Shown one piece after another: positions 5,196-55,624 of a DNA stretch of 64,000 nt. Source of the DNA: an uncultured Collinsella sp. Its GTDB lineage: Bacteria > Actinomycetota > Coriobacteriia > Coriobacteriales > Coriobacteriaceae. A program made the position numbers and the translations under genes. Where the stretch lies: assembly GCA_902466735.1 (NCBI GenBank), contig CABQSB010000009.1, positions 21,352 through 85,351 on the forward strand, written 5' to 3'. The stretch's first letter is position 1; the number at the start of each line of letters is the position of its first letter. Under the pieces are notes generated by a model. That model was not told the origin of the DNA. It searched no databases and worked only from the letters and a program-made list of their open reading frames with translations.

Positions 5196-5313
5196 GGCGG
5201 AGCGATACCTATTTGCTCCGCTGCTCGGACAGTCCTGCGCAAGACGGAAAGCACATTAAGTGCTTTCCTTTGCGTGCGGAACTCGCGACGGAGCAAATAG
5301 GTATCGCTCCGCC
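5196..5313 (+). repeat. Copy 1 of a three-copy structured element: 68-nt conserved core flanked by a perfect 25-bp inverted repeat
   Basis: GGCGGAGCGATACCTATTTGCTCCG, then core CTGCTCGGACAGTCCTGCGCAAGACGGAAAGCACATTAAGTGCTTTCCTTTGCGTGCGGAACTCGCGA, then the exact reverse complement of the flank. Lies about 40 nt upstream of the ygeY start. Confidence 0.8.
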
Positions 5314-5387
5314 TCCCGGGTTCATGCATCTGCAGGACATAGGGGGTCTAATAGGAATTTGGCGCGGCGCGTTGCGCCGCCCAACGA

Positions 5388-6602
5388 TTAGCAGGTCGGA
5401 TATTCGCCTTCCCAAACAATGCGGCGATACTGGTCGGGGTCCGTGTCGCCTTCCGTGGAGAAGCAGAGCACGGAGCTCGTCTTGTCCAGGCCGATGAGCT
5501 CCTTGAGCTCGGCGTACTCGGGATCGAGCATGAGGGTCTCGACCAGGCCGGTGGTCACCGCGCCGGACTCGCCGGAGATGACGCGCGGGTCGCCCTTCTC
5601 GGGAGCACCCAGGGTACGCATACCGCGAGCGGTGACCCAGTCGGGGCAGGACACGAACGCGGTGGTGTGGTTGCGCAGGATATCCCAGCCCAAGATGTTG
5701 GGCTCGCCGCAGCACAGGCCGGCCATGATGGAGGGCATGTCGCCGTCCACAATGCGCGGATCGCCGTCGCCGGCGGCAGCGCCCTTGTACAGGCAGGCGG
5801 CAGGCGCGCACTCGACCACGACGAAGGTGGGCGGGTTATCGGGATACAGGTTGGTGAAGTAGCCCACCACGGCGCCGGCGAGCGAGCCTACGCCAGCCTG
5901 GACAAAGACGTGCGTCGGGCGGTTGATGGCCATCTCGCGCAGCTGCTCGGCAGCCTCGGAAGCCATGGTGCCGTAGCCCTCCATGATCCAGGACGGGATC
6001 TTCTCGTAGCCCTCCCAAGCGGTGTCCTGAACGATAACGCCGCGCTCGCAAGCGTCGGCCTCGGCGGCGGCCATGCGCACGCACTCGTCGTAGTTGACCT
6101 CTTCGATGGTCACCGTGGCGCCCTCGGCGGCGATGTTATCAAAGCGGGGCTTGGTGGAACCCTTGGGCATGTGCACGACGGCCTTCTGGCCCAGCTTGTT
6201 GGCAGCCCATGCCACGCCGCGGCCATGGTTGCCGTCGGTGGCGGTAAAGAAGGTGGCCTGGCCAAAGTCCTTGGCCAGCTGATCGGAGGTCAGGTAATCG
6301 AAGGTGCAGTCGGCAACGTCCTTGCCGGTCTCGTCGGCAATGTAGTTGGCCATGGCAAACGAGCCGCCCAGAACCTTAAAGGCGTTGAGGCCAAAGCGAT
6401 AGCTCTCGTCCTTAACGCACAGGTTGGACAGGCCCAGGCGCGCAGCCTGACCGTCCAGGCGGGCAAGCGGAGTGACGGTATATTGAGGGAACGACTGGTG
6501 GAAGGCGCGGGCCTTCTTCACGTGGTCGAGGCTCATGATTCCCAAGTGCTTATCATCGCTCTTGGGCATCGTGTTGCCCGCCCACTGGATCTTATCGGCC
6601 AT
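5388..6602 (-). CDS. ygeX: diaminopropionate ammonia-lyase (PLP-dependent, fold type II), YgeX/DpaL-like
   Basis: 404 aa. Tryptophan-synthase-beta-like PLP enzyme with characteristic DAPAL N-terminus (LGIMSLDHVKKARAFH..., KDESYRFGLNAFK with the PLP lysine). Confidence 0.85.
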   Translation of the reverse strand: MADKIQWAGNTMPKSDDKHLGIMSLDHVKKARAFHQSFPQYTVTPLARLDGQAARLGLSNLCVKDESYRFGLNAFKVLGGSFAMANYIADETGKDVADCTFDYLTSDQLAKDFGQATFFTATDGNHGRGVAWAANKLGQKAVVHMPKGSTKPRFDNIAAEGATVTIEEVNYDECVRMAAAEADACERGVIVQDTAWEGYEKIPSWIMEGYGTMASEAAEQLREMAINRPTHVFVQAGVGSLAGAVVGYFTNLYPDNPPTFVVVECAPAACLYKGAAAGDGDPRIVDGDMPSIMAGLCCGEPNILGWDILRNHTTAFVSCPDWVTARGMRTLGAPEKGDPRVISGESGAVTTGLVETLMLDPEYAELKELIGLDKTSSVLCFSTEGDTDPDQYRRIVWEGEYPTC

Positions 6603-6693
6603 ACGGTGAACTCCTTAAGTCCTCTCTTGCCGGCCCCCGCATACGCGTTTCAGCCCATTCCCATTCATGCGGCTGAACTTTTATGTGGATGCC

Positions 6694-6759
6694 AAACAAA
6701 AAGTTTGTTAGCACTGTTCTATCACACTTTTTCATTGCTAAACCTAACAAATTGTTTGT
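6694..6759. promoter_or_regulatory. Two palindromes AACAAA-N3-TTTGTT in an AT-rich divergent intergenic region between ygeX and the yheO-like gene: candidate operator(s) or promoter
   Basis: AACAAAAAGTTTGTT at about 6694-6708 and AACAAATTGTTTGTT at about 6745-6759. The region is strikingly AT-rich compared with the genome. Confidence 0.4.
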
Positions 6760-6879
6760 TGCCGCAATCGGTACCTTTTCGCCGCCGAACGGTCACATAA
6801 CGCAGCAACGCTTTCGTTATTTGCGAACAAGTGTGGTTTATGGCAAAGTGAGCCCAAACTAATTTTTAGGAAGGCACCC

Positions 6880-7533
6880 ATGACCCACGCACAGATTGAG
6901 TTTTACAAGCGCCTTGCACACGGTCTGGCGCTCCAATTTGGCCCCAACTGCGAAGTCGTCGTCCACGATCTGGAGACCGAGGACGTGGACCACTCCATCG
7001 TAGTGATCGAAAATGGCCACGTCAGCGGGCGCAAACTGGGTGACGGCCCCAGCCATATCGTGTTTGAGTCCATGCACGAGGGCACCACCGACGTACACGA
7101 CCGCGAGCCGTACCTCACTAAAACCACCGATGGCAAGCTGCTCAAGTCCTCGACCATCTTTATCCGCAACGACGAAGGCAAGCCCGTCGGCATTTTGGGC
7201 ATCAACTTTGACATTACGCTTATGAAGGCTTTTGAGCGTTCGCTCGACGCCTTTACCGGCACCGGCGGCACGGGCTATACCGAGCCCGAGCCCATTACCA
7301 AGAACATCGGCGACCTGCTCGAGGACCTGCTGCACGAGTGCGAGCAGTTTGTGGGCAAGCCCGCGGCACTCATGACCAAAGACGAGCGTATTCGTGCCAT
7401 TGGCTACCTCGACCGTCGCGGCGCCTTCCTCATTTCAAAGTCGAGCGAGCGCGCCTGCGAGTTCTTTGGCATCTCCAAATACAGCTTCTATAGCTACCTC
7501 AACGAGGCCAAGGCGGCGGCCGGCGACAAGTAG
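6880..7533 (+). CDS. YheO-like PAS-domain transcriptional regulator (PAS-like N-terminus plus C-terminal HTH)
   Basis: 217 aa. Conserved YheO-family N-terminal block (FYKRLAHGLALQFGPNCEVVVHDLE...VIENGHVSGRKLGDGPSHIV). Divergent from the ygeX operon. Confidence 0.7.
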   Translation: MTHAQIEFYKRLAHGLALQFGPNCEVVVHDLETEDVDHSIVVIENGHVSGRKLGDGPSHIVFESMHEGTTDVHDREPYLTKTTDGKLLKSSTIFIRNDEGKPVGILGINFDITLMKAFERSLDAFTGTGGTGYTEPEPITKNIGDLLEDLLHECEQFVGKPAALMTKDERIRAIGYLDRRGAFLISKSSERACEFFGISKYSFYSYLNEAKAAAGDK

Positions 7534-7656
7534 GTACTCGCCTGGATTGCCCCTCCCCTTTTGGGCGCGAGTTCTGGAAAGCACGAATCCAAGACCGAGT
7601 CGCTTGGGAAGTTCCATATAATCGATGTCATTGGTATTTCGAAAGGGTGGAACAGA

Positions 7657-8643
7657 ATGGCGCTGAGCAAGGCATCATGCACCGGTCGCGGATTGATTCC
7701 AGCAATTGGTGGACATGTGCACCGCATGTTCGATGAGGGTGAAGACGACCTGTTTTCGCTGAGCCTTGACGACGTGATGGATGATCGCCCGTGGACCGCC
7801 GACGAACTCATGGGCGGTGGGGCTCGCCCGTCAAGCCCCAATCCCGCACTTGCGCCTAAGTCCGCATCTGCGCCGACTCCTGCGCAGCCGCCTGTTTCGA
7901 CGCCCGCGTCTGCGCCCGCACCCATTTCGGCGCCCACGCCCACTCCCCGCCCCGCAAGCGACCCGTCCGAGACGGCGGCATTTCTCGCTGCGGCGACGCA
8001 GGGCAAATCGGCCGACAGCACCGTTATGTACAGCGCCCAGCAGTTGCCTGTTCCTGCGGCACGCAAGCCTCCGGTCACAAGGCTCGATGAGCCCGTTGCC
8101 CATCAGGTTGCCTACGATTTCTGGGCTGCAGCCGATCTGGATGAGACCTCTACCGGCATGCCGGCGCTCGACGTTCCAGTTAACCCGCTTTTTGCCGCCA
8201 ACACGAGCGCCGCGGACTATGAGGGCGGTGCGGCATATTCCGATTATTCCGATGGCTATGCTGACGCCGGTCGCATCGAGACCGAGGATTATGGCACCGC
8301 ATCGAGCGATTATCTCAACGATCCGTACGCTGCCACGCCTGCACCGGAATATGACCCGGAGGCCGCGTCCGCACCGGCGTATACCAAAAGCACGGGCGAA
8401 GAGCGCTTCGCCGATTATTACGCCAAGGAAAAGGCGCTGCGTTTCTCGGAATTTCCGCAGGCAGTCAAGGCTGCCTTTATCGCCATTGTCATTGCCCTGC
8501 TCGGCGTCATTGCATTTGAGGGATTCCAGCTGTTCTCCGGCCCCACCCAAGCGGAGTCGGAGACCCAGCAAAAAGAGGACGATAACCAGTACCTGGACAT
8601 CAACACCCTCAAGGGCGACCCCAACGACGGGGACGATGAGTAG
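7657..8643 (+). CDS. hypothetical Pro/Ala/Ser-rich low-complexity protein with a single C-terminal transmembrane helix
   Basis: Start trimmed to MALSKAS (AAGGGTGG upstream). Long PAPTPA-type low-complexity region. Hydrophobic stretch AAFIAIVIALLGVIAF near the C-terminus. Confidence 0.4.
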   Translation: MALSKASCTGRGLIPAIGGHVHRMFDEGEDDLFSLSLDDVMDDRPWTADELMGGGARPSSPNPALAPKSASAPTPAQPPVSTPASAPAPISAPTPTPRPASDPSETAAFLAAATQGKSADSTVMYSAQQLPVPAARKPPVTRLDEPVAHQVAYDFWAAADLDETSTGMPALDVPVNPLFAANTSAADYEGGAAYSDYSDGYADAGRIETEDYGTASSDYLNDPYAATPAPEYDPEAASAPAYTKSTGEERFADYYAKEKALRFSEFPQAVKAAFIAIVIALLGVIAFEGFQLFSGPTQAESETQQKEDDNQYLDINTLKGDPNDGDDE

Positions 8644-9008
8644 CGAGAGCTGAAGGCGGCCGCAGGATCCCGCATCCAGCACCGGCTTCTAAGTGCTGTT
8701 TTGTCATCCAGCTACACTTTTCCGAAGTTTTAAGGTGCCTATTTCGACACTTTTCCGTACTTTTACACGGCTGATTTCGACACTTTTCCGGATGAAAGCC
8801 GAATAATCACTTGGGAAACCAACGCCGTTCACGCGTCATTTCGCAGGCGGCGCTTGATTTCTGTCCGTACACGTTGATAGACTTCCTCTTGCCCGCAAGG
8901 AGCGGGCGCATTTTATCCAGAGTCGGGGTAGAGAGTTGGCTCCACGATCCCGACGCCAACCGGCCAAGAGGCACGGTGGCCCTGCCAACATCGATGAAAG
9001 GAGTCCGT

Positions 9009-9374
9009 ATGGACAATTTCTCCGTGCGCAGCGAGCGTAACTTCCACAACCTGATCGTCAAACCGAATCACATGCATCTTCTGGATAAGCCAAATGGCTA
9101 CGCCTCGGCCATGATCAAGAGCAGCCTCTCCCACCAGATGCGCTTTACGGTGCAGGTGCTCTAGGAAGAACTCTGCGCCGCCGGCAGCCCGCACGTGCTG
9201 CAGATCAAGCTGCTTGGAGACGACTCTCGCGAGCCGTCTAGCTGGAAGCTCTTTGCTGACGGCATATGCGTTGCGGACGGATCCGGCGCCTTTGCCCGAG
9301 AGTGCTTCTGCGAGGGAGCCGAGGCATTCCTGGACCTGTGCCGCGACGCCGTACGCACGGCCGAGCTGTACTAG
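9009..9374 (+). pseudogene. small hypothetical ORF (ATG after AAAGGAG) interrupted by one in-frame TAG at 9162-9164, and open for 69 more codons
   Basis: Read directly: MDNFSVRSERNFHNLIV...RFTVQVL, then TAG, then EELCAAGSPHVLQIKLLGDD...AELY. Either a 51-aa peptide or a disrupted 121-aa gene. Confidence 0.25.
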
Positions 9375-9452
9375 TGGAGCCAGAGGGAGTATGAGCTGTT
9401 GAGTGCGGCCCGCGGGATTGCGGGGGCGTAGGCAGACAGGCCAGACAGCTCG

Positions 9453-10274
9453 TCATACTGGTTGACGCTTCGATTCAAACAGCAGGGCGGGCTCGCGCTT
9501 ACAGCCCCGCCATGCCAAACCGAATGGCGTTCTCAAAAGGCCTACCCCCTCCGCCTTCAGCTTTAGCAGCAGGTCGCCCAGCTCGGAGCACTTGCTGGAA
9601 AGGCGCGTCTGAGCTCGCTCGCCCATCCCCCACCGTTGACGGACCTCCTGGGCGCGCGGGCTCACGCGGTAGTCCCCGTCCATCATCTGCTTGAGCAGCT
9701 TGGCGGTTACGCGCGCATCGGCAAGGGCGCTGTGGGCGTGGCCCGTCGACTCGTCGAACTCGATGCCAAACCACGCTGCCGCGTCACTCAAAGAGACGCA
9801 CCCGTGGCTGCCCACGTCCATGATCGAGGTGTAAAACGCCTGCAGATCGGCCCAGTCCGTAGGAAATGCGGCAAGATCGATGTGCTTTGCCTGACACTCG
9901 GTCAAAAGCTGCCGACGATCCGTCCCGCTCCAGCAAACTATCTGGGCGGAGTAGCGACCGATCCAATCGTTGAGCCTTTTGATCACCACGTAGAGCGAAT
10001 CGGCCATCGCGGTGTCCACAGCCGATATCCCTGTGAGCTCGCGGACGGGAAACGCAACGCCTTCGGTAAATTCCGTCTGCACAAACTGCGAGAACTCGCC
10101 CATAACGTTGCCGTGGTAATCGAGCTTGACGGCGCCGACCTCGATAATCTCATTGCGCAGTCCACGGCGCTGGCGCTGCTTTGGCACCGGCGCAAACTCA
10201 AAGTCCAGCACAATCTGGCGCGCAAAGTTCGTCGTATCGATAGCCGAAATACCCGGCGTCTTTTCAGCTGACAC
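9453..10274 (-). CDS. DEDDh-family 3'-5' exonuclease (DnaQ-like) domain protein with C-terminal extension
   Basis: Exo I motif LDFEF. HSALADA motif (H-x4-D). GTG start chosen after a GGAGAAAGG-like RBS. The upstream 100 aa of the ORF are Ser-rich low complexity without an RBS. Confidence 0.6.
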   Translation of the reverse strand: MSAEKTPGISAIDTTNFARQIVLDFEFAPVPKQRQRRGLRNEIIEVGAVKLDYHGNVMGEFSQFVQTEFTEGVAFPVRELTGISAVDTAMADSLYVVIKRLNDWIGRYSAQIVCWSGTDRRQLLTECQAKHIDLAAFPTDWADLQAFYTSIMDVGSHGCVSLSDAAAWFGIEFDESTGHAHSALADARVTAKLLKQMMDGDYRVSPRAQEVRQRWGMGERAQTRLSSKCSELGDLLLKLKAEGVGLLRTPFGLAWRGCKREPALLFESKRQPV

Positions 10275-10738
10275 GGTTAGGGCCTTTCTCCGTTGCCTGC
10301 CGCCTGCTACATAGCTACATAGGCGGCTACATTGCCGTAAGGATAGGCGCCCGTGCGGACATGAAAGCGGGACGCAATGCCATGCGCCGGGCGCGCGTAT
10401 GCAGACGGCCCCAAGAGAGTCGCCCGCTCTATTCAAATGCATGAAAAAGATTGAGGCCCGGTGACTTGAATCAAAGGTCATCCCGGGCCCATCAGAGCTC
10501 GTAGAGCTCTTGGTTGCTTTGGTCTCGCTCTTCACGGCGCTTATCGAACTTTCCGAGGCACTCAAGCAGCATTCGAAGCATAACAAGTCGCTGCCATTAA
10601 GGCACTGACCTCTTGACCAAGCAACGGCGCTGCCCAGCTCTTCACCACTTGGGCCGCCGTCGACTTTATTCTATCCGCGAGCATCTGGTTTACCAAATGG
10701 ATTTTCGGTAAAGGAAGCACGGCACGCCCGCAAAACCA

Positions 10739-11392
10739 CTACGCCCCAAGTGCCGCCATGGGGATCACCGCCACGCCGTCGTCGCGTGTGTAGGCAATGC
10801 TCCCCTTTCCAACCACGACCGCCAAAAACGCCGGCGCGGCATTCTGGGCGGCAGGATTGGAGAGCACTTTCCTCTCCAGCGCCTTGAGATTTCTCGCTCC
10901 ATCGTCTGCTTTCGCATCACTCAGCTTGACCTCAATGGCTCCCCAGCGCCCGTCGTGCTCAACGATCAGATCGACCTCAAGGCCCTTCTCATCTCGGAAA
11001 TAATGGACACTGTTGTCGACACCGCCGTAGGTGGAAAGGAACACGCGCACATCGCGCAGAACGAGGTTCTCAAAGAGCATCCCCAACGTTTGCATATCGC
11101 CAAGCAGCCGCTCAGGGGTAGCCCCCAGCAACGCCGCCGCAAGTGACGGGTCGCAGAAGTAGCGCTTGGGGCGCACGCGAACGCGGGCCTTCGAGCGCAT
11201 GGGCGGCTCCCATCCGCACGGGTCCTCGGTCAGTTTGAGCCTGTTGAAGAGGTCCAAGTACGCAGCGATGGTCCTCTCGTCGGGACCCGCCTCACCGTAC
11301 GAGGCGTCCTTTATGAGCGTCTTGTACGTGACGGCCTGGCTCTCGTTCATGGCAAGAGCTCGCAAAAGGCCGTGTGCAAGCTCGGGCGACAT
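10739..11392 (-). pseudogene. N-terminally truncated AAA-family ATPase: only the DUF4143-type C-terminal domain remains
   Basis: 217 aa match the C-terminal (DUF4143) half of the common 400-aa ATP-binding protein family. No Walker A/B region upstream. Tandem repeats start 15 nt upstream of the ATG. Confidence 0.5.
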
Positions 11393-11410
11393 GCGATATA
11401 CGAAATTACG

Positions 11411-11502
11411 CCATTCTCAATGCTGTTTTTACGCTACTTTCAATGTAGTTTTTACGCCATGACAGATGCAGTTTTTACGCTATTTTCATTGAAGGTTTTA
11501 CG
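11411..11502. repeat. 4 x 23-bp tandem direct repeat (consensus YYAYTNTCAWTGNNGTTTTTACG)
   Basis: Units read directly: cattctcaatgctgtttttacg / ctactttcaatgtagtttttacg / ccatgacagatgcagtttttacg / ctattttcattgaaggttttacg. Confidence 0.8.
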
Positions 11503-11539
11503 CTTGGCATCCTTAGCGCAACGCTCGCTCAACCCCTGA

Positions 11540-11900
11540 CCACCGGATTGCCCGAATTCCGGGATGCTGCCTCCGCTCCAAACAAAAGGCCCAGCTCGCG
11601 ATGAGCTGCCTCCCATTTCTTGAACATTAGAAATGGGAGACTTTCCACCCCATGCCTCTATCGGAAACGGAATCCCGTCCTGAACATCGAATCCGGGACG
11701 TAGTTTCCGCATGCGGCCTCGTTAGGAAAGCATGTCCCACTCTGAGCGCTCATTCCGGGGTGCAATTTCCGCCAGAAACGCCGCCGGGAAAGCACATCCC
11801 GATTTGGAGCCGAAATCTGGGATGTAGTTTCCACTTGAAGGGCGATCCGGAAAGCACGTCCCATTCCGAGTGGCAATTCCGGGTCACAGTTTCCGCAGAT
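11540..11900. repeat. Array 1 of a roughly 62-bp repeat made of alternating inverted ~31-bp half-units (GGAAAGNRYRTCCC... / GGGNYGNANTTTCC...). About 4.5 units with a terminator-like module near the left end.
   Basis: Units read directly, e.g. ggaaagcatgtccc...ggggtgcaatttcc and ggaaagcacgtccc...gggtcacagtttcc. Same family and same orientation as array 2. Confidence 0.8.
11579..11610 (-). terminator. terminator-like module H1 (CTCCAAACAAAAGG + GC hairpin), paralogous to the xdhD terminator. A second perfect 10-bp hairpin (TCCCATTTCT/AGAAATGGGA) lies at about 11611-11638.
   Basis: On the minus strand it reads as a hairpin followed by UUUUGUUUGG. No minus-strand gene upstream, so it is an orphan copy. 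Confidence 0.4.
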
Positions 11901-12190: not shown

Positions 12191-13189
12191 ATGACCCATT
12201 GCAATGACCAACTCATCGACCAACTGCTCACTCAGGCCGAGCAGGAGGGACGATGCCTTATTCCCCCGAGCACGGCGGTCCGAAAAGCGCTCCTTCAGCG
12301 CATGGGCGTCACGGTCGCCTCGCCCATGCCGGGGTTGTTTGCGCGAAAAACGCGCTGGGACGAACTCAACCGAGCGCAACGCCATTGCGAGATTATCCGC
12401 GCCCTTGCAATCATCCACCCCGATTGGACGTTCTGCTCGTTTTCGGCAGCATGCCTCCTGGGACTCGAAGTCTCGTGGCGGCACCTGAACGTCGCACACG
12501 TCTGCAGCTCGACAAAACCATCGGCTCGCCCGGGCGCGCATATTCAGCGGCATCAGATCGAGCCGGCCGGAGCAATCCGTCTATCCAGCACATCGGTAAC
12601 GCCGCCCATCAAAACGGTAACGGATTGCCTGCTGCAGACCGGTTTTGCCGATGGCATGCCTATTGCCGATTCGGCGATCTCAAAGCTTGGCCTAACGCGA
12701 GAGCAGCTGATGGGAGCAGTCGAAAAACGAGCGGGCGCTCGCAACGGCCGCGCGGTGCGCACGGCCCTCACCACGCTCCAATATGCTGACGCGCGCGCCG
12801 AGAGCGGCGGGGAATCGGTCGCCCGCGCTGTCATGATCGAGACCGGCTTTGCACCCGACCAACTTCAATACGAGCTAACGGATCCCTTCGATTCGACCGA
12901 AAGCATGCGAACGGATTTTGCCTGGGAGCGTCAAGCCAGGGAGCTCACGCTGGGCGAACTCGACGGGCTCATCAAATATACCGACCAGACCATGCTGGCC
13001 GGACGCACCACCGCCGAGGCGCTCGTTGCCGAACGACAGCGCGAGGCGCATCTATCGCTCTACGGTCACCCTCTGCTGCGCTTTACCATGAACGAGGTCC
13101 GCTCGGCAGGAATGCTCGCCAAAAAGCTGCAGACGGCAGGCATCCGGCAGACCGCGCTGCCGACATGGCTCAACGACGTGGAGCTGTAG
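12191..13189 (+). CDS. DUF559 (Vsr/restriction-endonuclease-like) domain protein with N-terminal AbiEi-antitoxin-like domain
   Basis: 332 aa. AAAAGGAGG RBS. N-terminus GLFARKTRWDELNRAQRHCEIIRALAIIHPDWTFCSFSAACLLGL is the typical AbiEi_4-like block. C-terminus RTDFAWERQARELTLGELDGLIKYTD...GHPLLRFTMNEV matches the DUF559 pattern. Confidence 0.7.
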   Translation: MTHCNDQLIDQLLTQAEQEGRCLIPPSTAVRKALLQRMGVTVASPMPGLFARKTRWDELNRAQRHCEIIRALAIIHPDWTFCSFSAACLLGLEVSWRHLNVAHVCSSTKPSARPGAHIQRHQIEPAGAIRLSSTSVTPPIKTVTDCLLQTGFADGMPIADSAISKLGLTREQLMGAVEKRAGARNGRAVRTALTTLQYADARAESGGESVARAVMIETGFAPDQLQYELTDPFDSTESMRTDFAWERQARELTLGELDGLIKYTDQTMLAGRTTAEALVAERQREAHLSLYGHPLLRFTMNEVRSAGMLAKKLQTAGIRQTALPTWLNDVEL

Positions 13190-13264
13190 GAGCCGCTAGG
13201 CCGCGCATCGCCGAATCGCATCCCCCCCCTATCTGGGCCGCGTTTTCCCAACGGCCACGCCAAC

Positions 13265-13808
13265 GGAAAGCGCGTCCCAGTCTGGACGCTCAAAACGGGA
13301 TGTACATTCCGGATGGCGGGCCTAGCGGAAAACGTGTCCCGGAATAGACGCTCAAACTGGGATGCAGTTTCCAAGTGAATGACAACCGGAAAGTGCGTCC
13401 CGGAATAGGAGCTCGGAACGGGATGCGCTTTCCTGACGAAGCTCCTTGCGGAAAGCGTGTCCCAGAATGAAGACTCAGAATGGGATGCAATTTCCGCCTG
13501 AAGGCGATTCGGAAAGCATATCCCGTTCTGGCATCGAATTCCGGGTCGCAGTTTCCGGTTGAGGGCTGTTCCGGAAAGTGTGTCCCATTCCAGGCGCGGA
13601 TTCCGGGACGCACTTTCCGTTTGAAGCTCCAACCGGAAAGCGCGTCCCACTCTGGAGCCGAATTCCGGGACACGCTTTCCGCCAGAGGCTCTACCGGAAA
13701 GCGCATCCCATTCTGAGCATCGATTCCGGGTCGCAGTTTCCGCCTGAGAGCCGATCCAGAAACTGCATCCCATTCTGAGCGCCAATTCCGGGTCGCAGTT
13801 TCCGCTCC
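13265..13808. repeat. Array 2 of the same ~62-bp alternating inverted-unit repeat, about 9 units, ending in terminator module H2
   Basis: Nine consecutive units begin GGAAAG(C/T)G(C/T)(G/A)TCCC, each followed about 18 nt later by GGG(A/T)(T/C)GCANTTTCC, the reverse complement of the first half. The two minus-strand ORFs in the track are artefacts of the repeat. Confidence 0.85.
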
Positions 13809-28254: not shown

Positions 28255-28302
28255 AACCTGCCGAAAAGGGACAGGTTTATTTTGGCAGGTTTTATCTGGG
28301 CA
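28254..28302 (+). repeat. solo copy of a ~48-bp hairpin-forming repeat (ACCTGCCRAAAAGGGACAGGTTTATTTTGGYMGGTTTTATCTGGG), followed by a second terminator-like hairpin
   Basis: Same sequence recurs at 55648 (+) and 57457 (-). Here it sits between convergent rluA-like and deoR genes. Confidence 0.7.
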
Positions 28303-37323: not shown

Positions 37324-37935
37324 TTAGGCCATACGGATGGCGACGAGACCATTCTTGGCACCCGGGACAGCGCCCTTGACCAAGATGAGGTTCTGCTCGG
37401 CATCGATGCGGACAACGGAAAGGTTCTTGACGGTAACGCGCTCGTTACCCATGTGACCGGCCATCTTGACGCCCTTGAGGACGCGCGCAGGATAGGCGCA
37501 CTGACCGATAGAACCGGGGTGACGCTGGAAGTGAGAACCATGCGTCATAGGACCGCGGCGCTGACCCCAGCGCTTGATGCGACCCTGGAAGCCCTTACCC
37601 TTGGAGGTACCGATGACGTCGACCTTCTCGACATCAGCGAAATCAGCGACGGTGACGACCTCGCCGACCTTGTGCTCCTCGCCGTTCTCGACGCGGACCT
37701 CACGAAGGAAGCGGACAGGCTCGACGCCAGCCTTGGCGAAGTGACCAGCCATGGGCTTGTTCACGTTCTTGGCCTTGATGTCGCCGAAACCGATCTGGAC
37801 GGCGTCATAGCCGTCGGTTGCCTGAGTTTTAACCTGCGAGACAGCGCAGGGGCCAGCCTGGATGACCGTGACGGGAACGACGTTATCGTTCTCGTCCCAA
37901 ACTTGGGTCATGCCAATCTTGCGGCCGAGAATCAT
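37324..37935 (-). CDS. rplC: 50S ribosomal protein L3
   Basis: [37 protein letters not shown]... canonical L3. ATG chosen over the upstream TTG of the ORF track (start +/- 9 nt). Confidence 0.92.
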
Positions 37936-38205
37936 GCTGATCAAGATATGATCCCAACTCTCGCGTGGTCTTGGGACAATGCGTACACCACCGAGCGTAC
38001 GCCCCTAGAGGACCACTACTTACACGACGTGCTCCCCAGCCTTGTATTTCGCCCGGACTACCTGACAACCCTATTAAGCAGGCATTTTGTCCAGCCAGAA
38101 TACTCCCCTGGTTACACACAGCTGTTTAGTATACACGGCTGCGGGCGTATCCATCGAGATTCATATTTCACTCACATTGTTTACGCAGGTAAAGTGCGTG
38201 GATGG

Positions 38206-38356
38206 CTCCCGAGCACGGCGGAGGGCCGGAGAAATATATTAAGGTCCCTGCTCTACAGTCCTGCGCAAGACGGAGAGCACATTAAGTGCTCTCCTTTGCG
38301 TGCGGAACTCGCGATGACCTTAATATATTTCTCCGGCCCTCCGCCGTGCTCGGGAG
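38206..38356 (+). repeat. Copy 2 of the structured element: 68-nt conserved core flanked by a perfect 41-bp inverted repeat
   Basis: CTCCCGAGCACGGCGGAGGGCCGGAGAAATATATTAAGGTC, then core with GGAGAGCAC ATTAA GTGCTCTCC, then the exact reverse complement of the flank. About 270 nt upstream of rplC. rpsJ is absent at this position. Confidence 0.85.
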
Positions 38357-38393: not shown

Positions 38394-39020
38394 CTAATTA
38401 CTTTGTTGAGGATCGATGATTTGCTGCAAGATAAACTTGGATTGGGGCGCGTCGCCTTCTTCTCCCGACTTTTCCTCTTCGAAATCGAAAATCATGATGG
38501 CGCAATTGGGGAGTTTTGCTGGGAGTTCGAAACCCTCTGGGGCTGCAGCCTTGATGAATTGGCGGCTGGCGCTGCCGTGGCTTACTGCTAGGAGGGTTTC
38601 GATGCCCTCGGCGCCCATGAGATTGGTGAGGGTACCTACCATGCGTTCTTGCAGTGCGCGGCTTCCTTCTCCTCCGAAGGGGACCAGGTCCTCGCCCGGG
38701 TCCCAGACATCGGTGGGCAGGGCGTCGTGGGGGCCTTCTTCGAAGGCGCCGTAGCAGCGCTCGATGATGCCTTCGCAGGGGTCGACGGCAGCGTCCGGGC
38801 CGAGGAGTTCGGTAGCGACGAGCTGAGCTGTATCCATGGCCCGGCCTAAGGGTGATGAGACCACTTTGTCGGGGACGACGCCGTGGGCTTTGAGCCACGC
38901 GGCTGCCATTCCCGCTTGTTTACGGCCCAGGTCGGTTAACGGTGAATCGCAGCGGCCCTGGACCAGCTTTTTGACGTTGAATTCTGTCTGGCCGTGGCGG
39001 AGTAGATATAGACGCTTCAT
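38394..39020 (-). CDS. histidine phosphatase family protein (phosphoglycerate-mutase-like)
   Basis: RHG catalytic motif at the N-terminus (LLRHGQTEFN). 208 aa. Confidence 0.8.
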   Translation of the reverse strand: MKRLYLLRHGQTEFNVKKLVQGRCDSPLTDLGRKQAGMAAAWLKAHGVVPDKVVSSPLGRAMDTAQLVATELLGPDAAVDPCEGIIERCYGAFEEGPHDALPTDVWDPGEDLVPFGGEGSRALQERMVGTLTNLMGAEGIETLLAVSHGSASRQFIKAAAPEGFELPAKLPNCAIMIFDFEEEKSGEEGDAPQSKFILQQIIDPQQSN

Positions 39021-45590: not shown

Positions 45591-45593
45591 GCT

Positions 45594-47654: not shown

Positions 47655-47684
47655 GTCATTCCTTTCGGGTTACAGCCCTGTGGA

Positions 47685-49546: not shown

Positions 49547-49782
49547 TACTTCTCCAATGCCGCCTCGACCGTATCGACGAACTCGCCGACCGTCTTGGGA
49601 TTCTCCTCGGTATCGAGCTCAATGCCAAACTCGTCCTCGACGGCGACGAGGATTTCGACAGTGCCAAGGCTGTCGAGACCAATCTCCTCGAGCGTTGACT
49701 CGGGCCTCATCTCGACGTCGTCAAGGCCAGCCGTCTCGCGGATAACGTCGCAAACGCGCTCGAAGGTCTTCTGATCTGCCAT
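49546..49782 (-). CDS. acpP: acyl carrier protein
   Basis: 78 aa. Phosphopantetheine attachment motif GLDSL. Confidence 0.93.
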   Translation of the reverse strand: MADQKTFERVCDVIRETAGLDDVEMRPESTLEEIGLDSLGTVEILVAVEDEFGIELDTEENPKTVGEFVDTVEAALEK

Positions 49783-49834
49783 GGTAGTTCTCCTTTGTTT
49801 GTGCCCTAGGGGCGGTTTTATTTCCTATGTGCGA

Positions 49835-50794
49835 CTACTTCCAACGAAGCAGATAGCCACCTATATCCAGGCCGGCGCCAAATCCAACGAGGGCGATGGT
49901 GTCGCCCACATTCAGTGCGTCGGTGCGTGCCAGTCGGTCAAGCGCAAAGGGAATGCAGGCGCTCGAAATGTTGCCGGTCTCCCGCAGCGTTCGAACCATG
50001 AGCTCGTCTGGCACGCCGAGGCGCTTGACCGCCTGACTCAGGATTCGTTCGTTAGCCTGATGGAATACAAAATGATCGATGTCTTCGACCGAAATGCCCG
50101 CATCGCTCGCAAGCTTATGGACCGTGTCGCAGATGGCGTTGACGCCGAACTTGAACACGCGGCGGCCATTCATGGACAGCACGCTCTCGCTATCTGCGGA
50201 GGCCTTAAACGGCGAGGTACCGACCAGACCGGGAACGCGCAACGTCTCGACGTCGGGCGCCGTCGAAAGCTCAACGGCAAGGGGGTTGTCTCCCCCAGCC
50301 CCAATCACTGCGGCGCCTGCCCCATCGCCAAAGAGCACGCACGTGGCACGGTCGGTCCAATCGAGCGCGCGCGTCATCTGCTCGGCGGCAACGACCAGCA
50401 CGTGCTCGGCGCGACCGCGGGCGATATAGCCCTCGGCGACATCGAGCGCAAATACGAAGCCGGCACAAGCCGCCGAGACATCGAAGGCAGGGCACGTCGC
50501 GCCTAGTCGCTCAGCAACGGCACACGCCTCAGCGGGAACAAGGTGATCACCTGTCGTCGTCGAGCAGACGATCAGATCCAGCTGGCTCGCGTCGATTCCG
50601 GACACCCGGAGTGCCCGCTCGCTCGCCGCTACGGCAAGGTCGTCAAGTGACTCGGTGGTGCAGACGTGGCGGCTCTTGATACCTGTGCGGGTAAAAATCC
50701 ACTCATCCGAGGTGTCCAGGAACTCGGACAGCTCGTCGTTGGAAACGCTGCGCTCAGGAAGTGCCGAGCCCGTTCCCAGTATCGTGAAACCCAT
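49835..50794 (-). CDS. fabH: beta-ketoacyl-ACP synthase III
   Basis: 319 aa. KAS III pattern with active-site Cys (AACAGF), His, Asn. Confidence 0.92.
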   Translation of the reverse strand: MGFTILGTGSALPERSVSNDELSEFLDTSDEWIFTRTGIKSRHVCTTESLDDLAVAASERALRVSGIDASQLDLIVCSTTTGDHLVPAEACAVAERLGATCPAFDVSAACAGFVFALDVAEGYIARGRAEHVLVVAAEQMTRALDWTDRATCVLFGDGAGAAVIGAGGDNPLAVELSTAPDVETLRVPGLVGTSPFKASADSESVLSMNGRRVFKFGVNAICDTVHKLASDAGISVEDIDHFVFHQANERILSQAVKRLGVPDELMVRTLRETGNISSACIPFALDRLARTDALNVGDTIALVGFGAGLDIGGYLLRWK

Positions 50795-50810
50795 CGCTCA
50801 CCTCCTTTGA

Positions 50811-50880
50811 GTTGTTGATGTGTTTACATCGACCAAGAGAGGATAGCGCATTCTGCGCTTTGTTGACGTGTTAACATCAA
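50811..50880. promoter_or_regulatory. two direct copies of a 19-nt partly palindromic motif TTGTTGAYGTGTTWACATC in the fabH/birA divergent promoter region: candidate operator
   Basis: gttgttgatgtgtttacatcg (about 50811-50831) and tttgttgacgtgttaacatcaa (about 50858-50880). Confidence 0.35.
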
Positions 50881-50970
50881 ATTGTCCAAATGCGACAAAG
50901 GCTTCACATTGTGTCTATCTCTCGACACCATTGCGTCATTCACTTATTCATTAAGGAGGTAGCAGCCGCT

Positions 50971-51747
50971 ATGGATGCCCAATTAACGATAGTCGACGTA
51001 ACCGGATCGACCAACGATGACCTGCTCGAGGCTGGAAAACAGGGTGCGCCGCACGGCACGGGACTTGCCGCCTGGGCTCAGACGGCAGGACGCGGCCGAC
51101 GCGGCCACAAGTGGGACTCAACCGCCGGCAACCTGTTGCTTTCGATTGTCCTACGTCCACATGTTAATGCCGCCAAGTACTCTGGTCTTGCTGCCGTCAG
51201 CGGCCTAGCGGTGCTCGGGACGCTCGGGGCGCAAGGCCTTGCGAACGAGATCGGCCTCAAATGGCCCAACGACCTCGTCGCGCGGGGACATAAGCTCGGC
51301 GGCATTCTGGTCGAAGCGACGCGCGACAACGAGGGCGAGCCCTTCGCCGTCTGCGGCATTGGCGTCAATGTAAACTACACGCCCCAAGAGGTGCCCGATG
51401 GCGGCTTGGCGGCAATTGGCCTCTCAGACCTCAACGAGAATGTTCCCGCCGTCGATGTGCTACTCAAGGAGGTCTATCACGCCGTTATAGACGCTGTAGA
51501 TGCGTGGGCAGAGCGCCTCAACGCCATGGAAGAAAATGCCGGACCGTTAGCACCCGTCCACGACGAATATATCGCTCACCTCAATTGGATTGGGGAGCAC
51601 GTTATCGCCCGCTCCCCCGCTGGAGACGAACTGGCGCGAGGCATCTTTCAAACCGTCGATGACTGTGGTCGCGCGCGCATCAAGACAGAAGACGGCTTTC
51701 GATCCTTCCATTTTGAGGAGGCATCGCTGCGTCCCATGGGCACATAA
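50971..51747 (+). CDS. birA: biotin--[acetyl-CoA-carboxylase] ligase, catalytic-only form (no N-terminal DNA-binding domain)
   Basis: Start trimmed to MDAQLTIV (AAGGAGG RBS). GRGRRG biotin-binding motif. 258 aa. Confidence 0.85.
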   Translation: MDAQLTIVDVTGSTNDDLLEAGKQGAPHGTGLAAWAQTAGRGRRGHKWDSTAGNLLLSIVLRPHVNAAKYSGLAAVSGLAVLGTLGAQGLANEIGLKWPNDLVARGHKLGGILVEATRDNEGEPFAVCGIGVNVNYTPQEVPDGGLAAIGLSDLNENVPAVDVLLKEVYHAVIDAVDAWAERLNAMEENAGPLAPVHDEYIAHLNWIGEHVIARSPAGDELARGIFQTVDDCGRARIKTEDGFRSFHFEEASLRPMGT

Positions 51748-51807
51748 GGCACCACAACCACTCATTCGGCTGCATCGCCCGGACCCCCAAGGCCATCATG
51801 CAAAACA

Positions 51808-51842
51808 AAAGAGCCCCGCTACCGTAATGGCAGCGGGGCTCT
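51808..51842 (-). terminator. intrinsic terminator after rpsJ (AGAGCCCCGCT / AGCGGGGCTCT 11-bp stem followed by UUUUGUUUUG on the minus strand)
   Basis: Perfect stem and U-tract, read directly between convergent rpsJ and birA. Confidence 0.75.
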
Positions 51843-51863
51843 GTAAGCTATGAGCGGTATCGC

Positions 51864-52172
51864 TTAGAGCTTGATGTCGATGTCGACGCCAGCGGGGAGG
51901 TCGAGACGCATGAGCGAATCAACGGTGCCCGAGGTGGGGTCGAGAATGTCGATGAGGCGCTTGTGGGTGCGCATCTCGAACTGCTCACGGGAGTCCTTAT
52001 TCACGTGCGGCGAGCGGATAACCGTGTACAGGTTACGCTCGGTGGGCAGGGGGACAGGGCCGGAAACGCGAGCACCGGTCTTCTGAGCGGTCTCGACGAT
52101 GAGCTTCGCGGACTGATCGACGACCTCGTGATCATAGCCCTTGAGGCGAATGCGGATCTTCTGGGTAGCCAA
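51864..52172 (-). CDS. rpsJ: 30S ribosomal protein S10
   Basis: [44 protein letters not shown]... canonical S10. Confidence 0.95.
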
Positions 52173-52233
52173 CTTAAACCTCCAAAGAGTGCGAGAGATG
52201 TTCTCGCAGGATTACGTAACAGGGAGCTCGAAC

Positions 52234-54333
52234 TTAGGCGTTCTTGCTCATGACCTCGTCCACGATGGACTTGGGCGCGGGCTCATAAGAGTCGAACTGC
52301 ATCGTGTAGGATGCACGGCCCTGGGTCTGGGAGCGAAGGTCGGTAGCGTAACCGAACATCTCGCCCAGCGGCACCTTGGCACGGATGAGCTTGCTGTTCT
52401 TGCGATCCTCCATGCCCTCGATCTTACCGCGGCGACCGGAGAGGTTGCCCATAACGTCGCCCATGTACTGCTCGGGGGTCTCGACCTCGACAGCCATGAT
52501 CGGCTCGAGCAGCTGCGGGTCGGACTTCTTGAGAGCGTCCTTGATAGCCATGGAACCGGCGATCTTAAAGGCGGCCTCGGAGGAGTCGACCTCGTGGTAA
52601 GAACCGTCGAACAGGGTGACCTTGACGTCGAGGACCGGGAAGCCGGCGATAACACCGGTGTTCAGGGCCTCCTGGATGCCCTTGTCGATGGACGGGATGT
52701 ACTCCTTGGGCACGACGCCGCCGACGATAGCGTTGACGAACTCGTAGCCGAAGCCCTCCTCCATCTTCTCGAGCTTGATGACGGCGTGGCCGTACTGACC
52801 GCGACCACCGGACTGACGGACGAACTTGCCCTCAGCCTTCTCGACGTCGTGACCAGCGGTCTCGCGGTAGGCAACCTGGGGCTTACCGACGTTAGCGTCA
52901 ACCTTGAACTCGCGGAGCAGACGGTCGACGATGATCTCGAGGTGCAGCTCGCCCATGCCGGCGATGATGGTCTGGCCGGTCTCGTGGTTGGTGGACACCT
53001 GGAAGGTCGGGTCCTCCTCGGCGAGCTTGGTCAGAGCCAGGGACATCTTGTCCTGCTCGGCCTTGGTCTTGGGCTCGATGGCAACGTCAATAACGGGCTT
53101 AGCGAACTCGATCTTCTCGAGGACGATCTCCTTGCCCTCGGCGCACAGGGTGTCACCGGTGGTGGAGTTCTTGAAGCCGACGCAAGCGACGATGTCGCCG
53201 GCGGCAGCGTCGTCACGGTCGATACGCTCGGCGGCGTTCATCTCGAGGATGCGGCCGAGGCGCTCGCGCTGACCGTTGGAAGCGTTGACAACGTAGGAGC
53301 CGGACTCGGCGCGGCCGGAGTAAACGCGGACGTAGGTGAGCTTACCGACGAACGGGTCGGTCATGATCTTGAAGACCAGGCCGGAGAAGGGCTCGTCGAA
53401 GGAAGGATGACGCTGAATCTCCTCGCCGGTGTCCGGATCGGTACCGGTGACGGCCTCGACGTCAAGCGGGCTGGGCAGGTAGTCGACGACAGCGTCGAGC
53501 AGCTCCTGAACGCCCTTGTTCTTGTAGGCGGAACCCACGAAGACGAGGTTGAGCTCGTTGGCCAGAACGCCCTTGCGCAGAGCAGCCTTGAGCTCCTCGA
53601 CGGTGAAGTCCTCCTCCATGAGGATCTTCTCCATGAGCTCGTCGTCAAAGCTGGCAGCAGCGTCGAGGAGCTCCTCGCGCTTGGTGGCAGCGATGTCGGC
53701 AAACTCAGCCGGGATCTCGTCCATCGGCTCGGGGTAGGTCATACCCTTCTCGTCGGCCTTGAAGTCCCATGCAGTCATGGTGACCAGGTCGATGACGCCC
53801 CAGAAGTTGTCCTCGGCGCCCATCGGGACCTGAGCGGCCACGGCGTTGGCGTCGAGACGATCCTTCATGGTCTCGATAGCGTTGAAGAAGTCAGCGCCCA
53901 CGCGGTCATACTTGTTGATGAAGGCGATGCGGGGGACGTTGAAGGTAGAAGCCTGACGCCAAACGGTCTCAGACTGGGGCTGAACGCCGGCAACGGCGTC
54001 GAAGACGGCGACAGCGCCATCGAGGACGCGCAGGCAGCGCTCGACCTCGGCGGTGAAGTCAACGTGGCCCGGGGTGTCGATGATCTGGATGCGGTAGTCC
54101 TTACCGTCCTTGTTCCAGAAGCAGGTGGTAGCAGCGGAGGTAATGGTTACGCCGCGCTCCTGCTCCTGAACCATCCAGTCCATGGTGGCAGCGCCCTCAT
54201 GGACCTCACCGATCTTGTGGGTCTTACCGGTGTAGTAAAGAATACGCTCGGTCGTGGTGGTCTTACCAGCATCGATGTGGGCCATGATGCCGATGTTACG
54301 GGTATCGGAAAGCTTGTACTTAGGCTTAGCCAT
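52234..54333 (-). CDS. fusA: translation elongation factor G
   Basis: 699 aa. G-domain motifs [24 protein letters not shown] domains II-V. Confidence 0.97.
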
Positions 54334-54352
54334 GTTAGTTCCTTACCTTAAC

Positions 54353-54826
54353 TTACCAACGATAGTGAGAGAACGCGCGGTTGGCCTCGGCCATCTTGAA
54401 GACGTCCTCACGCTTCTTGACGGAAGCGCCCAGGCCGTTGGAAGCGTCGAGGATCTCGTTGGCGAGACGCTCGGCCATGGTCTTCTCCTTGCGAGCGCGG
54501 GAGAAGTTGACGATCCAGCGAATGCCCAGAGCGGTGGAACGACGGGAGTTGACCTCCATCGGGACCTGATAGGTAGCGCCACCGACACGCTTGGGCTTAA
54601 CCTCGAGCGTGGGCTTGACGTTGTCCATAGCCTTCTTGAAGGTAGCGAGAGCGTCGCCACCCTCGGACTTCTCGGCAACGATCTCGAAAGCGGTGTAAAC
54701 GATGCGCTCAGCGGTGGCCTTCTTGCCGTCAAGAAGGACCTTGTTGATGAGCTGAGTCACCAGGCGGTTGTTGTAAACGGCGTCAGGCTGAACCTCACGA
54801 CGATTAGCTGCTGCACGACGCGGCAT
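54353..54826 (-). CDS. rpsG: 30S ribosomal protein S7
   Basis: [30 protein letters not shown]... canonical S7. Confidence 0.95.
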
Positions 54827-54900
54827 GTGAAATCTCCTTAAGTGTCTACCGTGCGGCGCTCAAGACGGCACACGGCGAAAGTATCAAAACGTTATCTGGC

Positions 54901-55278
54901 TTATTTAGCCTTGGGGCGCTTAGCACCGTACTTGGAACGGGCCTGCATACGGTTCTGGACCGGAGCAGCGTCGTAGGCGCCACGGATGACGTGATAACGG
55001 ACACCAGGGAGGTCACGGACACGACCGCCGCGGACGAGCACGATGGAGTGCTCCTGCAGGTTGTGGCCCTCACCCGGGATGTAAGCAGTAACTTCGATGC
55101 CGTTGACGAGGCGAACACGGGCAACCTTACGAAGAGCCGAGTTCGGCTTCTTGGGGCTCGTGGTGAAGACGCGGGTGCACACGCCGCGCTTCTGGGAGTT
55201 GTGCTGCAGAGCAGCGTTCTTGGACTTCTTGGGCACGGAACGACGGCCCTGGCGAACCAGCTGGTTAATAGTAGGCAA
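54901..55278 (-). CDS. rpsL: 30S ribosomal protein S12
   Basis: [20 protein letters not shown]...[16 protein letters not shown] canonical S12. Confidence 0.95.
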
Positions 55279-55483
55279 AGCGTACTCCTTCTCGAATGAT
55301 TCCAGCTTTCTGTAAAGTGCAACGGCTTGAATCGAGGGGTCAGCATCCCCCTACGAAACACGCAGTTCGATAGGATACGTGGCGTTAGCTGTGCCGTCAA
55401 CAGACCACGCCGCCGGGCGTATCCCAAAATTGGCACATTTCCGCAAAGCCTACACAAAAGGAATCCCCTCCTGTGCGCGGGGG

Positions 55484-55624
55484 CGGATCCCCGGGCCGGG
55501 CGGCACAGGGGTTAAGTTTGCTGCTCTACAGTCCTGGCTCGCACGGAGGCCACATTAAGTGGCCTCCGGCTCGTGCGGAACTCGCGACAAACTTAACCCC
55601 TGTGCCGCCCGGGCCGGGGATCCG
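55484..55624 (+). repeat. Copy 3 of the structured element: diverged 67-nt core flanked by a perfect 37-bp inverted repeat
   Basis: CGGATCCCCGGGCCGGGCGGCACAGGGGTTAAGTTTG, then core with GGAGGCCAC ATTAA GTGGCCTCC (compensatory changes relative to copies 1 and 2), then the exact reverse complement of the flank. About 200 nt upstream of rpsL. Confidence 0.8.

Follow-up and report, generated by a model that had tools for sequence, protein, structure and literature searches.

A family of intergenic hairpins in Collinsella with a conserved asymmetric center and inverted-repeat arms that differ between loci

REPINs are doublets of REP sequences that form hairpins and are mobilized by RAYT tyrosine transposases, and MITEs (miniature inverted-repeat transposable elements) have conserved terminal inverted repeats derived from a parent insertion sequence (IS), together with target-site duplications. 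By definition a REPIN has conserved, inverted REPs at both ends of its hairpin and a less conserved spacer between them (PMC3116915), and a REP bears a terminal GTAG or CGTC tetranucleotide tag and tends to lie at gene 3′ ends (PMC3733652). REP dimers also occur inside long palindromes, such as those of CGTC-1 in H. neapolitanus (41 bp), GTAG-15 in A. variabilis, and GTAG-23 in T. roseum (PMC3733652). Here we describe a hairpin element found in three copies in a 64,000-nt stretch of DNA from an uncultured Collinsella sp. (contig CABQSB010000009.1, positions 21,352 to 85,351; the window, below). Its copies belong to a dispersed family whose hairpins are conserved in the middle and variable at the ends.

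All three copies in the window are on the plus strand, and each consists of a core of 67–69 nt with a co-varying central hairpin, flanked by near-perfect inverted repeats of 25–41 bp (Table 1; arm limits are from a repeat finder). A 60-nt pattern of the shared core has three exact matches in the window, all on the plus strand, and none in 100 dinucleotide-preserving shuffles. A covariance model run on the window recovers only the three copies, at 104–107 bits, the next match scoring 17 bits. An earlier note on this DNA had reported a three-copy element at these positions, and direct reading, pattern, and model all agree with it. The central stems are GGAAAGCAC/GTGCTTTCC, GGAGAGCAC/GTGCTCTCC, and GGAGGCCAC/GTGGCCTCC, exactly the co-varying hairpins that the note had given. 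The inverted repeats, which it took to be exact, are so in copy 1 (25 nt) and copy 2 (41 nt); in copy 3 one mismatch interrupts the 37 nt. For either strand the predicted fold is a single long hairpin (−83 to −115 kcal/mol; z-scores of −12 to −15). Peptide coding was considered and rejected, the variation being palindromic rather than codon-wise and the start codon not conserved; what is conserved is nucleic-acid pairing, as the note had argued.

We scanned 185,579 species-representative genomes with a gapped pattern of 20 bases. At least 120 loci match it, and among the matches listed nearly all are from Collinsella/Coriobacteriaceae; one further copy among them, in a metagenome-assembled genome (MAG) of Eggerthellaceae, has a different apical loop and the conserved internal loop. 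When copies are clustered by their flanks, ~33 distinct loci remain, several of which are common to 5–17 species or strains. The 0.9-Mb replicon of Collinsella aerofaciens TSDC17.2-1.1, with which the window is collinear at ~95% identity over 39 kb, holds 11 copies (~12 per Mb). The unit of the family is an intergenic hairpin of 120–170 bp with a conserved center of 67–70 nt. The covariance model adds copies that the exact pattern misses, namely diverged members at 63–91 bits, a truncated copy fused to another repeat, and three 36-nt fragments. Decaying members thus form a tail to the family, and such diverged, truncated, and fused forms suggest that copies arise and die out. In L149 (84–287 and 2121–2324), and likewise in L151, L106, and L091, a segment of 204 nt that comprises a hairpin and ~25–30 nt of flanking DNA on each side is directly repeated. 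One unit adjoins the rpoC terminator and the second lies upstream of rpsL, with a sigma/anti-sigma cassette between them, so segmental duplication is another route by which copies can arise.

Rfam at the gathering threshold finds only a SAM riboswitch in the whole window, and copy 2 searched at E-values up to 10 returns only generic miRNA-hairpin noise, in keeping with the earlier statement that the element resembles no named family. This includes the Collinsella-1 RNA motif (RF01700), also a small, structured, intergenic motif from the same genus, which copy 2 does not match up to that E-value. The element has no match in the phage collection that was searched, and the two matches in IMG/VR are host DNA beside a prophage. 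We conclude that the family is real, apparently undescribed, and architecturally unusual.

The likeness to REP, BIME, and REPIN elements is extensive: the copies are extragenic and numerous, biased toward gene 3′ ends, and built as long hairpins with compensatory changes, and they come with singlet remnants, mosaic variants, and a lineage-restricted distribution. The layout, however, is reversed. A REPIN has conserved 16-mers at its ends and a variable middle, whereas the Collinsella family has a conserved middle and variable ends, and the two conserved blocks of its core are not inverted copies of each other, unlike those of a REPIN. The GTAG tag was not found here, and CGTC begins an arm at ~3 of the ~33 loci (clusters 0, 4, and 34). 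With the REP dimers in long palindromes the family has in common a small conserved unit nested at the apex of a longer palindrome. Those palindromes have one consensus per genome around the dimers, whereas the Collinsella arms, 20–50 bp long, are strongly diverged between loci, and the nested unit is a single asymmetric core of 67–70 nt rather than a REP dimer.

Like MITEs and palindromic repeats such as Correia, ERIC, RUP, BOX, and RPE, the elements are small, non-coding, dispersed, hairpin-forming, and probably often co-transcribed with their neighbors. The arm ends differ between loci and the flanks lack direct repeats, which sets the family apart from MITEs; the contention of the earlier note that a conserved center with variable arms is the opposite of a MITE or IS has held up. 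The copies did not classify as attC-like sites, and in comparison with IS200/IS605 ends and PATEs, the IS200 ends of C. aerofaciens are unrelated to the core. In behavior the family resembles template-switch (quasipalindrome) mutagenesis, which yields the same arm homogenization, arm expansion, and spacer inversion as seen here, but this is a process rather than an element, and it leaves the conservation of the core and the multi-copy state unexplained.

The core alignment comprises 45 of 70 distinct sequences, members with chimeric-looking central stems, whose two halves seem to come from different variants, having been left out. In these 45 members every cell of the central stem of 9 bp is paired (100%), with both sides changing at four of the nine pairs and with neither G·U intermediates nor one-sided states. 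Among the inner arm pairs of the same alignment 10 of 11 co-vary, and one-sided G·U states in the arms occupy 2 of ~470 cells. The covariation score is 0.48, compared with 0.16 in shuffles and at most 0.15 with slid partners. The compensatory pattern first noticed in three copies persists in this subset.

The center carries CTGCTC..ACAGTCCTG on one side and GTGCGGAACTCGCGA on the other, together with an apical stem-loop. Twenty of its bases were fixed by the search pattern and are invariant by ascertainment; outside the pattern, the near-invariant bases are CTGCTC, CACATTAAGTG, and the GT before GCGG. Below the central stem we find three modules: CGCAAGAC..TTTGCG, (G)CTCGCAC..GGCTCG, and CTCACGAC..TGTTCG. 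A single lower stem below the central hairpin was discarded as a model, because only 62% of its cells are paired, each of the three modules having its own pairing register. There is free recombination between modules and variants of the central stem, so that one locus can show different combinations in different strains, tied to different inner arms, from which we infer that copies convert one another or that alleles are replaced. Both asymmetric blocks withstand the homogenization seen elsewhere in the element, which implies constraint on their sequence.

Complete copies are all bracketed by an inverted repeat, typically of 20–49 nt. The earlier note considered the arm sequence unique to each copy, but the arms of 31 non-orthologous loci share motifs far more often than shuffled sequences do: CCCGG/CCGGG occurs in 16 (shuffled mean, 4.7), a GGGCGG-like motif in 14 (4.5), and TAAG[GT]T in 11 (0.1). 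Read toward the core, the motifs keep one order, giving a loose consensus ..CCCGG..GGGCGGG..TAAGGTTTG beside the core. Since these ordered motifs are common to unrelated arms, the repeated unit is the whole hairpin, and the arms are its fast-evolving part.

In 3372 arm pairs from 113 distinct elements there are 58 mismatches (1.7%), of which 24 are A·C, 17 are G·T, and 17 are of other kinds, with no G·U bias on either strand. A functional RNA would tolerate G·U but not A·C, so the absence of this bias points to upkeep at the level of DNA. The mismatch spectrum, the near absence of G·U states, and the occurrence of both orientations relative to genes also speak against a strand-specific noncoding RNA, a small noncoding RNA having been among the possibilities raised in the earlier note. 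Comparisons between 65 pairs of same-length orthologs yield 238 compensated arm differences, 49 one-sided differences, and 15 that are non-complementary. The rate of difference in the arms (12.8%) is near that in the adjacent 30-nt flanks (16.6%), and the arms are therefore not hypervariable; they drift approximately neutrally, in lock-step. Because one mismatch in a 35-bp stem costs almost nothing, selection for stability cannot keep the stems perfect, and the pattern points to a templated DNA process as the economical explanation.

Template switching between the arms of an inverted repeat is reported to homogenize the arms, invert the spacer, expand the repeat, and create or maintain perfect stems (PMC8604942, PMC13100816, PMC8794818). 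The family holds likely examples of such events. At the rplC locus the core is reversed within the same arms in L167, one of 17 orthologs, and in the ygeX–ygeY spacer the H3 allele (L179 and three others) has its core reversed relative to the H2 allele of the window; no reversed core occurs among 13 orthologs at the rpsL locus. The 5 nt outside the left arm in L105 now read GTGCG, the reverse complement of the right flank (cgcac) of sister strains. In L091 (4822–4910) the complement of the right core block has replaced the left one (AGTTCCGCACGCAAAGGAAAGCAC/GTGCTTTCCTTTGCGTGCGGAACT), which makes the core a perfect palindrome with arms of 24 nt, and in L163 the inner left arm and all of the core except 7 nt have been lost between GAGC direct repeats. 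Core inversion, arm expansion, core homogenization, and hairpin-associated deletion fit the signatures expected of template switching.

On balance, we think it somewhat probable that the element represents a Collinsella-specific family of dispersed intergenic DNA palindromes, REP/REPIN-like but with a reversed layout. Perfect arms that differ between loci would then result from a mutational process of known kind, working on a palindromic repeat that is old and has been inherited vertically. As the mismatch pattern and the published mechanism together suggest, complementarity of the arms would be kept by a templated process on DNA and not by selection on RNA. This process would be intrastrand template switching at inverted repeats during replication, which would homogenize the arms, lengthen them by copying flanking sequence, and invert the spacer. 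The center would resist homogenization as the part that matters, and might be recognized by a putative trans-acting protein when the family spreads or copies convert. Copies may persist past gene 3′ ends because insertion is tolerated there. A transcribed copy would add a very stable hairpin to the end of the transcript, much like a REP acting as terminator or stabilizer, and we would regard this effect as a by-product and not as the reason for the existence of the family.

Several observations weigh against this interpretation. Most loci are common to many species, the core is conserved, and the spacing to the stop codon is tight (mostly 10–22 nt), all of which host function could explain instead. 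Conservation of the core is itself overstated, because 20 of its bases were fixed by the search pattern. No clean, fresh insertion that has clear-cut ends or a target-site duplication turned up among the family loci, and at the ygeX–ygeY spacer the star-like population of 96–98% identity offers no outgroup that could set the direction of presence/absence change. Nor has a mobility partner come to light: clustering of 1620 neighboring open reading frames (ORFs) gave housekeeping orthologs only and no mobilizing enzyme; tblastn with an IS200 TnpA query found nothing significant in the family loci; and the resident IS200 was rejected as parent, its left and right ends having no similarity to the core.

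A REP has a cognate RAYT gene that the repeats flank. A search confined to ~1.2 Mb of loci and the 0.9-Mb C. aerofaciens replicon yielded no RAYT. In that replicon a Y1 transposase is detected in only two places at E-values up to 1e-3; the two are 100% identical and belong to an ordinary IS200. One of these IS200/IS605 tnpA genes lies just after rpsJ (L189 33734–34192; NZ_OY725717.1 533435–533893), an insertion absent from the window, and the other is at 422886–423341 of the TSDC17.2-1.1 replicon.

For a census of positions relative to genes we collapsed orthologs and considered only ORFs of at least 100 amino acids with strong GC3 periodicity. At 13 loci the stop codon of a co-oriented gene lies 6–49 nt (mostly 10–22) before the CTGCTC-side arm. 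Roughly a dozen more loci, the three window copies among them, have the element 38–260 nt or more past a gene on the opposite strand, and at no locus of the census do the starts of both flanking genes lie beside it. The elements thus sit by gene 3′ ends in either orientation (~33 loci); an apparent orientation bias of 81% in the raw list vanished once orthologous duplicates were collapsed. Consensus scans of the window copies found no promoter, no terminator, and no U-tract. Neither of the hexamers tried as −10 elements is general: TACAGT and TAATGT are missing from many members or from L023, and the scan detects no −10 element. The proposal of the earlier note that the element is a promoter or attenuator module of operon starts is not supported, given the location at 3′ ends in both orientations and the lack of promoter or terminator consensus. 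Nothing found in these sequences speaks for a role as promoter, attenuator, or switch at the ribosomal-protein or ygeY operons, and for the window the idea of a novel regulatory module of this kind is removed.

The same census gives some weight to the possibility, which we consider unlikely but worth keeping in view, that the hairpin is a transcript-end module selected by the host, i.e., a lineage-specific terminator or RNA-stability element, perhaps with a protein-binding internal loop, which genes would have acquired and which would be maintained by selection on the RNA. At the 13 loci with a same-strand stop codon the position fits an intrinsic terminator, and the T fraction in the first 12–20 nt past the right arm is 0.31–0.32 compared with a background of 0.23. 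Stable inheritance of loci over many species also agrees with such a role, as does the internal loop that is kept even in the Eggerthellaceae MAG with its different apical loop. The enrichment in T is mild, however, with neither U-tract nor terminator consensus in the window copies, and with respect to the upstream gene the element is found either way round. G·U pairs are not tolerated on either strand, and perfect stems of 30–50 bp far exceed the needs of a terminator when one mismatch is about neutral for RNA stability. Furthermore, the gene before copy 3 already has a canonical terminator, and many strains lack the element in the ygeX–ygeY spacer, which is 74 nt long there.

A second hairpin family bears on the role of the center. 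It occurs at 4–5 Collinsella loci and is absent from the window; its 11-nt asymmetric apex, GGGCTTCGCGA, lies between GAGAAGT and ACTTCTC, and its perfect arms, of 31–37 nt and starting with GGGCCGGGG, likewise differ between loci. Both families carry (C/T)TCGCGA directly before the 3′ arm, which suggests a common apex logic. It is conceivable, though we rate it as rather doubtful, that the asymmetric apex is the recognition or cleavage site of a putative enzyme acting on folded single-stranded DNA or a cruciform. The hairpins would then form a new, apex-recognized class of mobile element, distinct from REP/RAYT systems and from MITEs, and the arms would be a disposable, self-correcting scaffold rebuilt from local sequence.

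REP and BIME elements bind host DNA-binding proteins such as IHF and gyrase, and by analogy the asymmetric center, on an extruded cruciform or hairpin, could be a chromosomal binding site for a nucleoid, topology, or repair protein that is maintained for the host. The asymmetric blocks are conserved in sequence while the paired regions are free to vary, and the heptamer shared with the second family would also be expected of a binding site. We nevertheless hold this to be improbable: no candidate protein emerged, the copy number is modest and confined to one genus, the element can be dispensed with where loci are polymorphic, and decayed and fused copies occur.

Alleles without the full element bear on the idea of the earlier note that the core alone moves and that its insertion copies one target flank, inverted, into the arms. 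In the ygeX–ygeY spacer, 15 of 20 other contigs have a 74-nt spacer that holds GGCGGAGTAAATAGGTATCGCTCCGCC, the gene-proximal arm alone (27 nt), and lacks the core and the second arm. At the rpsL locus, 22 nt from the outer part of one arm are all that L152 retains and L157 retains none, and at the rplC locus L163 retains one arm with a 7-nt remnant of core. The arm extension of 5 bp in L105 was built from the opposite flank, inverted, and to that extent the copying that the note envisaged does occur. The solo arms can be explained otherwise. That of L163, still attached to 7 nt of core, proves a deletion, and an automated search for empty sites over the family loci recovered this deletion only. 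At the ygeY locus the two units of a GCGG(AG) direct repeat stand at the left arm's outer end and at the junction of core and right arm, and the solo-arm allele is the product expected of slippage between them, give or take one G in a G-run; the inner motif (C/T)AAATAGG, which is family-like, is present in this solo arm as well. Three spacer alleles (H1, H2, and H3) coexist in the star-like population described above, and YgeY homologs of 86–88% identity, sought as outgroups, have a different gene order and are uninformative. Deletion appears at least as likely as insertion at this spacer. Solo-arm alleles can arise by deletion, so they are no proof of arm creation at insertion; with unrelated arms sharing an ordered consensus along their length, and with no target-site duplication, direct repeat, or conserved motif in the flanks of family loci, we regard such a hairpin-generating element as quite improbable.

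The least credible possibility, which we give very little chance, is an inverton in which a recombinase flips the core between its inverted repeats and so switches neighboring genes on or off: a short segment between inverted repeats is indeed found in both orientations within the same arms at two loci, but flips are rare (1 of 17 orthologs at rplC, 0 of 13 at rpsL), the core matches no sigma-70-type promoter and the candidate −10 hexamers are not general, the repeats are specific to each locus whereas invertase sites are shared, numerous copies lie between convergent genes, and clustering of neighboring proteins gives no recurring recombinase-like family, the largest families being housekeeping.

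Collinsella is a prevalent genus of the human gut whose proposed species, in the hundreds, rest mostly on MAGs. A currently unannotated repeat of ~150 bp at ~12 copies per Mb (in the one replicon counted) breaks assemblies and can create chimeric joins. Numerous copies do lie at contig ends, which would be expected of a repeat that exceeds the assembler k-mer. In the MAG contigs L099, L111, L113, and L116 the left and right arms are from different loci, which may represent chimeric joins at the repeat. The 5-kb contig L028 (CAVHBE010000088.1), binned as Methanobrevibacter smithii, ends in a Collinsella hairpin core (4918–4975) and is probably bin contamination. The family also offers a natural experiment, in which template switching would keep palindromes of 30–50 bp perfect over species-level divergence, flip spacers, and lengthen arms, while a conserved asymmetric center survives it. 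Should a partner protein exist, the REP/RAYT picture would extend to Actinomycetota with a reversed architecture.

Table 1. Coordinates of the hairpin copies in the window, of the 40-nt companion repeat, and of copies of the second hairpin family
Feature	Sequence	Position	Strand	Remarks
Copy 1, left arm	window	5193..5220	+	25 nt exact from 5196; 28 nt with one mismatch
Copy 1, core	window	5221..5288	+	68 nt; CTGCTCGGACAGTCCTG; central hairpin 5246-5254/5260-5268; loop ATTAA 5255-5259; GTGCGGAACTCGCGA
Copy 1, right arm	window	5289..5316	+	exact pairing 5289-5313
Copy 2, left arm	window	38206..38246	+	41 nt, 100% complementary
Copy 2, core	window	38247..38315	+	69 nt; central hairpin 38272-38280/38286-38294
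Copy 2, right arm	window	38316..38356	+	
Copy 3, left arm	window	55484..55520	+	37 nt, one mismatch
Copy 3, core	window	55521..55587	+	67 nt; central hairpin 55545-55553/55559-55567
Copy 3, right arm	window	55588..55624	+	
Companion repeat	window	55650..55689	+	40 nt; TGCCAAAAAGGGACAGGTTTATTTTGGTCGGTTTTATCTG; terminator-like stem AAACCTGYCC/GGCAGGTTT
Companion repeat	window	28259-28298	+	
Companion repeat	window	57462-57501	-	
Second family	L036	5332-5414		
Second family	L036	5526-5600		
Second family	L036	6652-6726		
Second family	L119	7125-7209		
Second family	L119	7321-7393		
Second family	L068	4006-4078		
Second family	L070	4826-4898		

Each window copy lies between the end of a minus-strand gene and the start of the next gene, the flanking genes being named from the Pfam labels of syntenic contigs. 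Copy 1 is 72 nt past a PALP (ygeX-like) gene (5388–6602) and 38 nt ahead of the gene for a YgeY M20 hydrolase (3770–5155). Copy 2 is 38 nt past the stop codon of a histidine phosphatase gene (38394–39020) and ~260 nt ahead of rplC (37324–37944), and copy 3 is ~200 nt past a DUF4179 anti-sigma-like gene (55831–56907), which has its own canonical terminator, and ahead of rpsL (54901–55278). The earlier placement of the copies just upstream of minus-strand operon starts is thus correct as far as the next gene is concerned, but each copy also follows a gene end, at 38 to ~200 nt. Its suggestion that copy 2 sits where rpsJ would normally be does not imply displacement, as rpsJ is present at 51864–52172, after fusA, as in this genus. 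Some 13 kb with fab/acc and other genes separate rpsJ from rplC. The leader of ~260 nt ahead of rplC (37945–38205) is nearly invariant between strains, which suggests that it may be the conserved leader of a truncated S10 operon. The SAM riboswitch (RF00162) is at 8910–9000 on the plus strand and scores 45.6 bits, just over the gathering threshold.

Near copy 3, the 40-nt companion repeat at 55650 lies ~25 nt from the CGCGA-side arm, and the same motif stands ~25 nt from a hairpin copy at at least four unrelated loci (L004, L005/L078, L025, and rpsL). The repeats at 55650 and 57462 form a 93%-complementary inverted pair around the ECF sigma and DUF4179 genes. This cassette is absent in L155, and L157 lacks both the 40-nt motif and the hairpin on the rpsL side.

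Arrays of another repeat, with units of ~62 nt, occupy 11654–11895 and 13264–13806 of the window, around an ORF of 332 amino acids (12191–13189, plus strand) without a Pfam match. A unit comprises two palindrome halves of ~15 nt, CGGAAAGYGYGTCCC/GGGAYRCRCTTTCCG, and has CGGAAAGC..GCTTTCCG in common with the central stem of the hairpin core. Truncated cores are fused to this array repeat (..TTTGTTTGCGGAAAGTGTGTCCCGGAAT..) at GCGGAA in L073 (7631–7724), L048 (5263–5298), L094 (3760–3795), and L032 (4476–4511); as these fusions occur at a common hexamer, the hairpin and array families recombine. Beside the first array is a tandem repeat of 23 nt, TTACGCTATTTTCAATGCAGTTT, in 4.3 copies (11406–11504).

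In L098 two hairpins (357–445 and 2593–2681) form an inverted pair around a 2.2-kb module of two genes (ORFs of 287 and 342 amino acids), beside a gene that we take, judging the translation by eye, to encode a UvrD/PcrA-like helicase. Other perfect palindromes occur as well: ATTGGGGACAGACTTAAATG with a 12-nt loop and its complement in L071 (7367–7430), L095 (2304–2355), and L111 (84–135), and ATATCACCCCAGTGATAGTT with a 7-nt loop and its complement in L002 (3510–3556) and its orthologs. The intergenic DNA of Collinsella seems to be unusually rich in long perfect palindromes.

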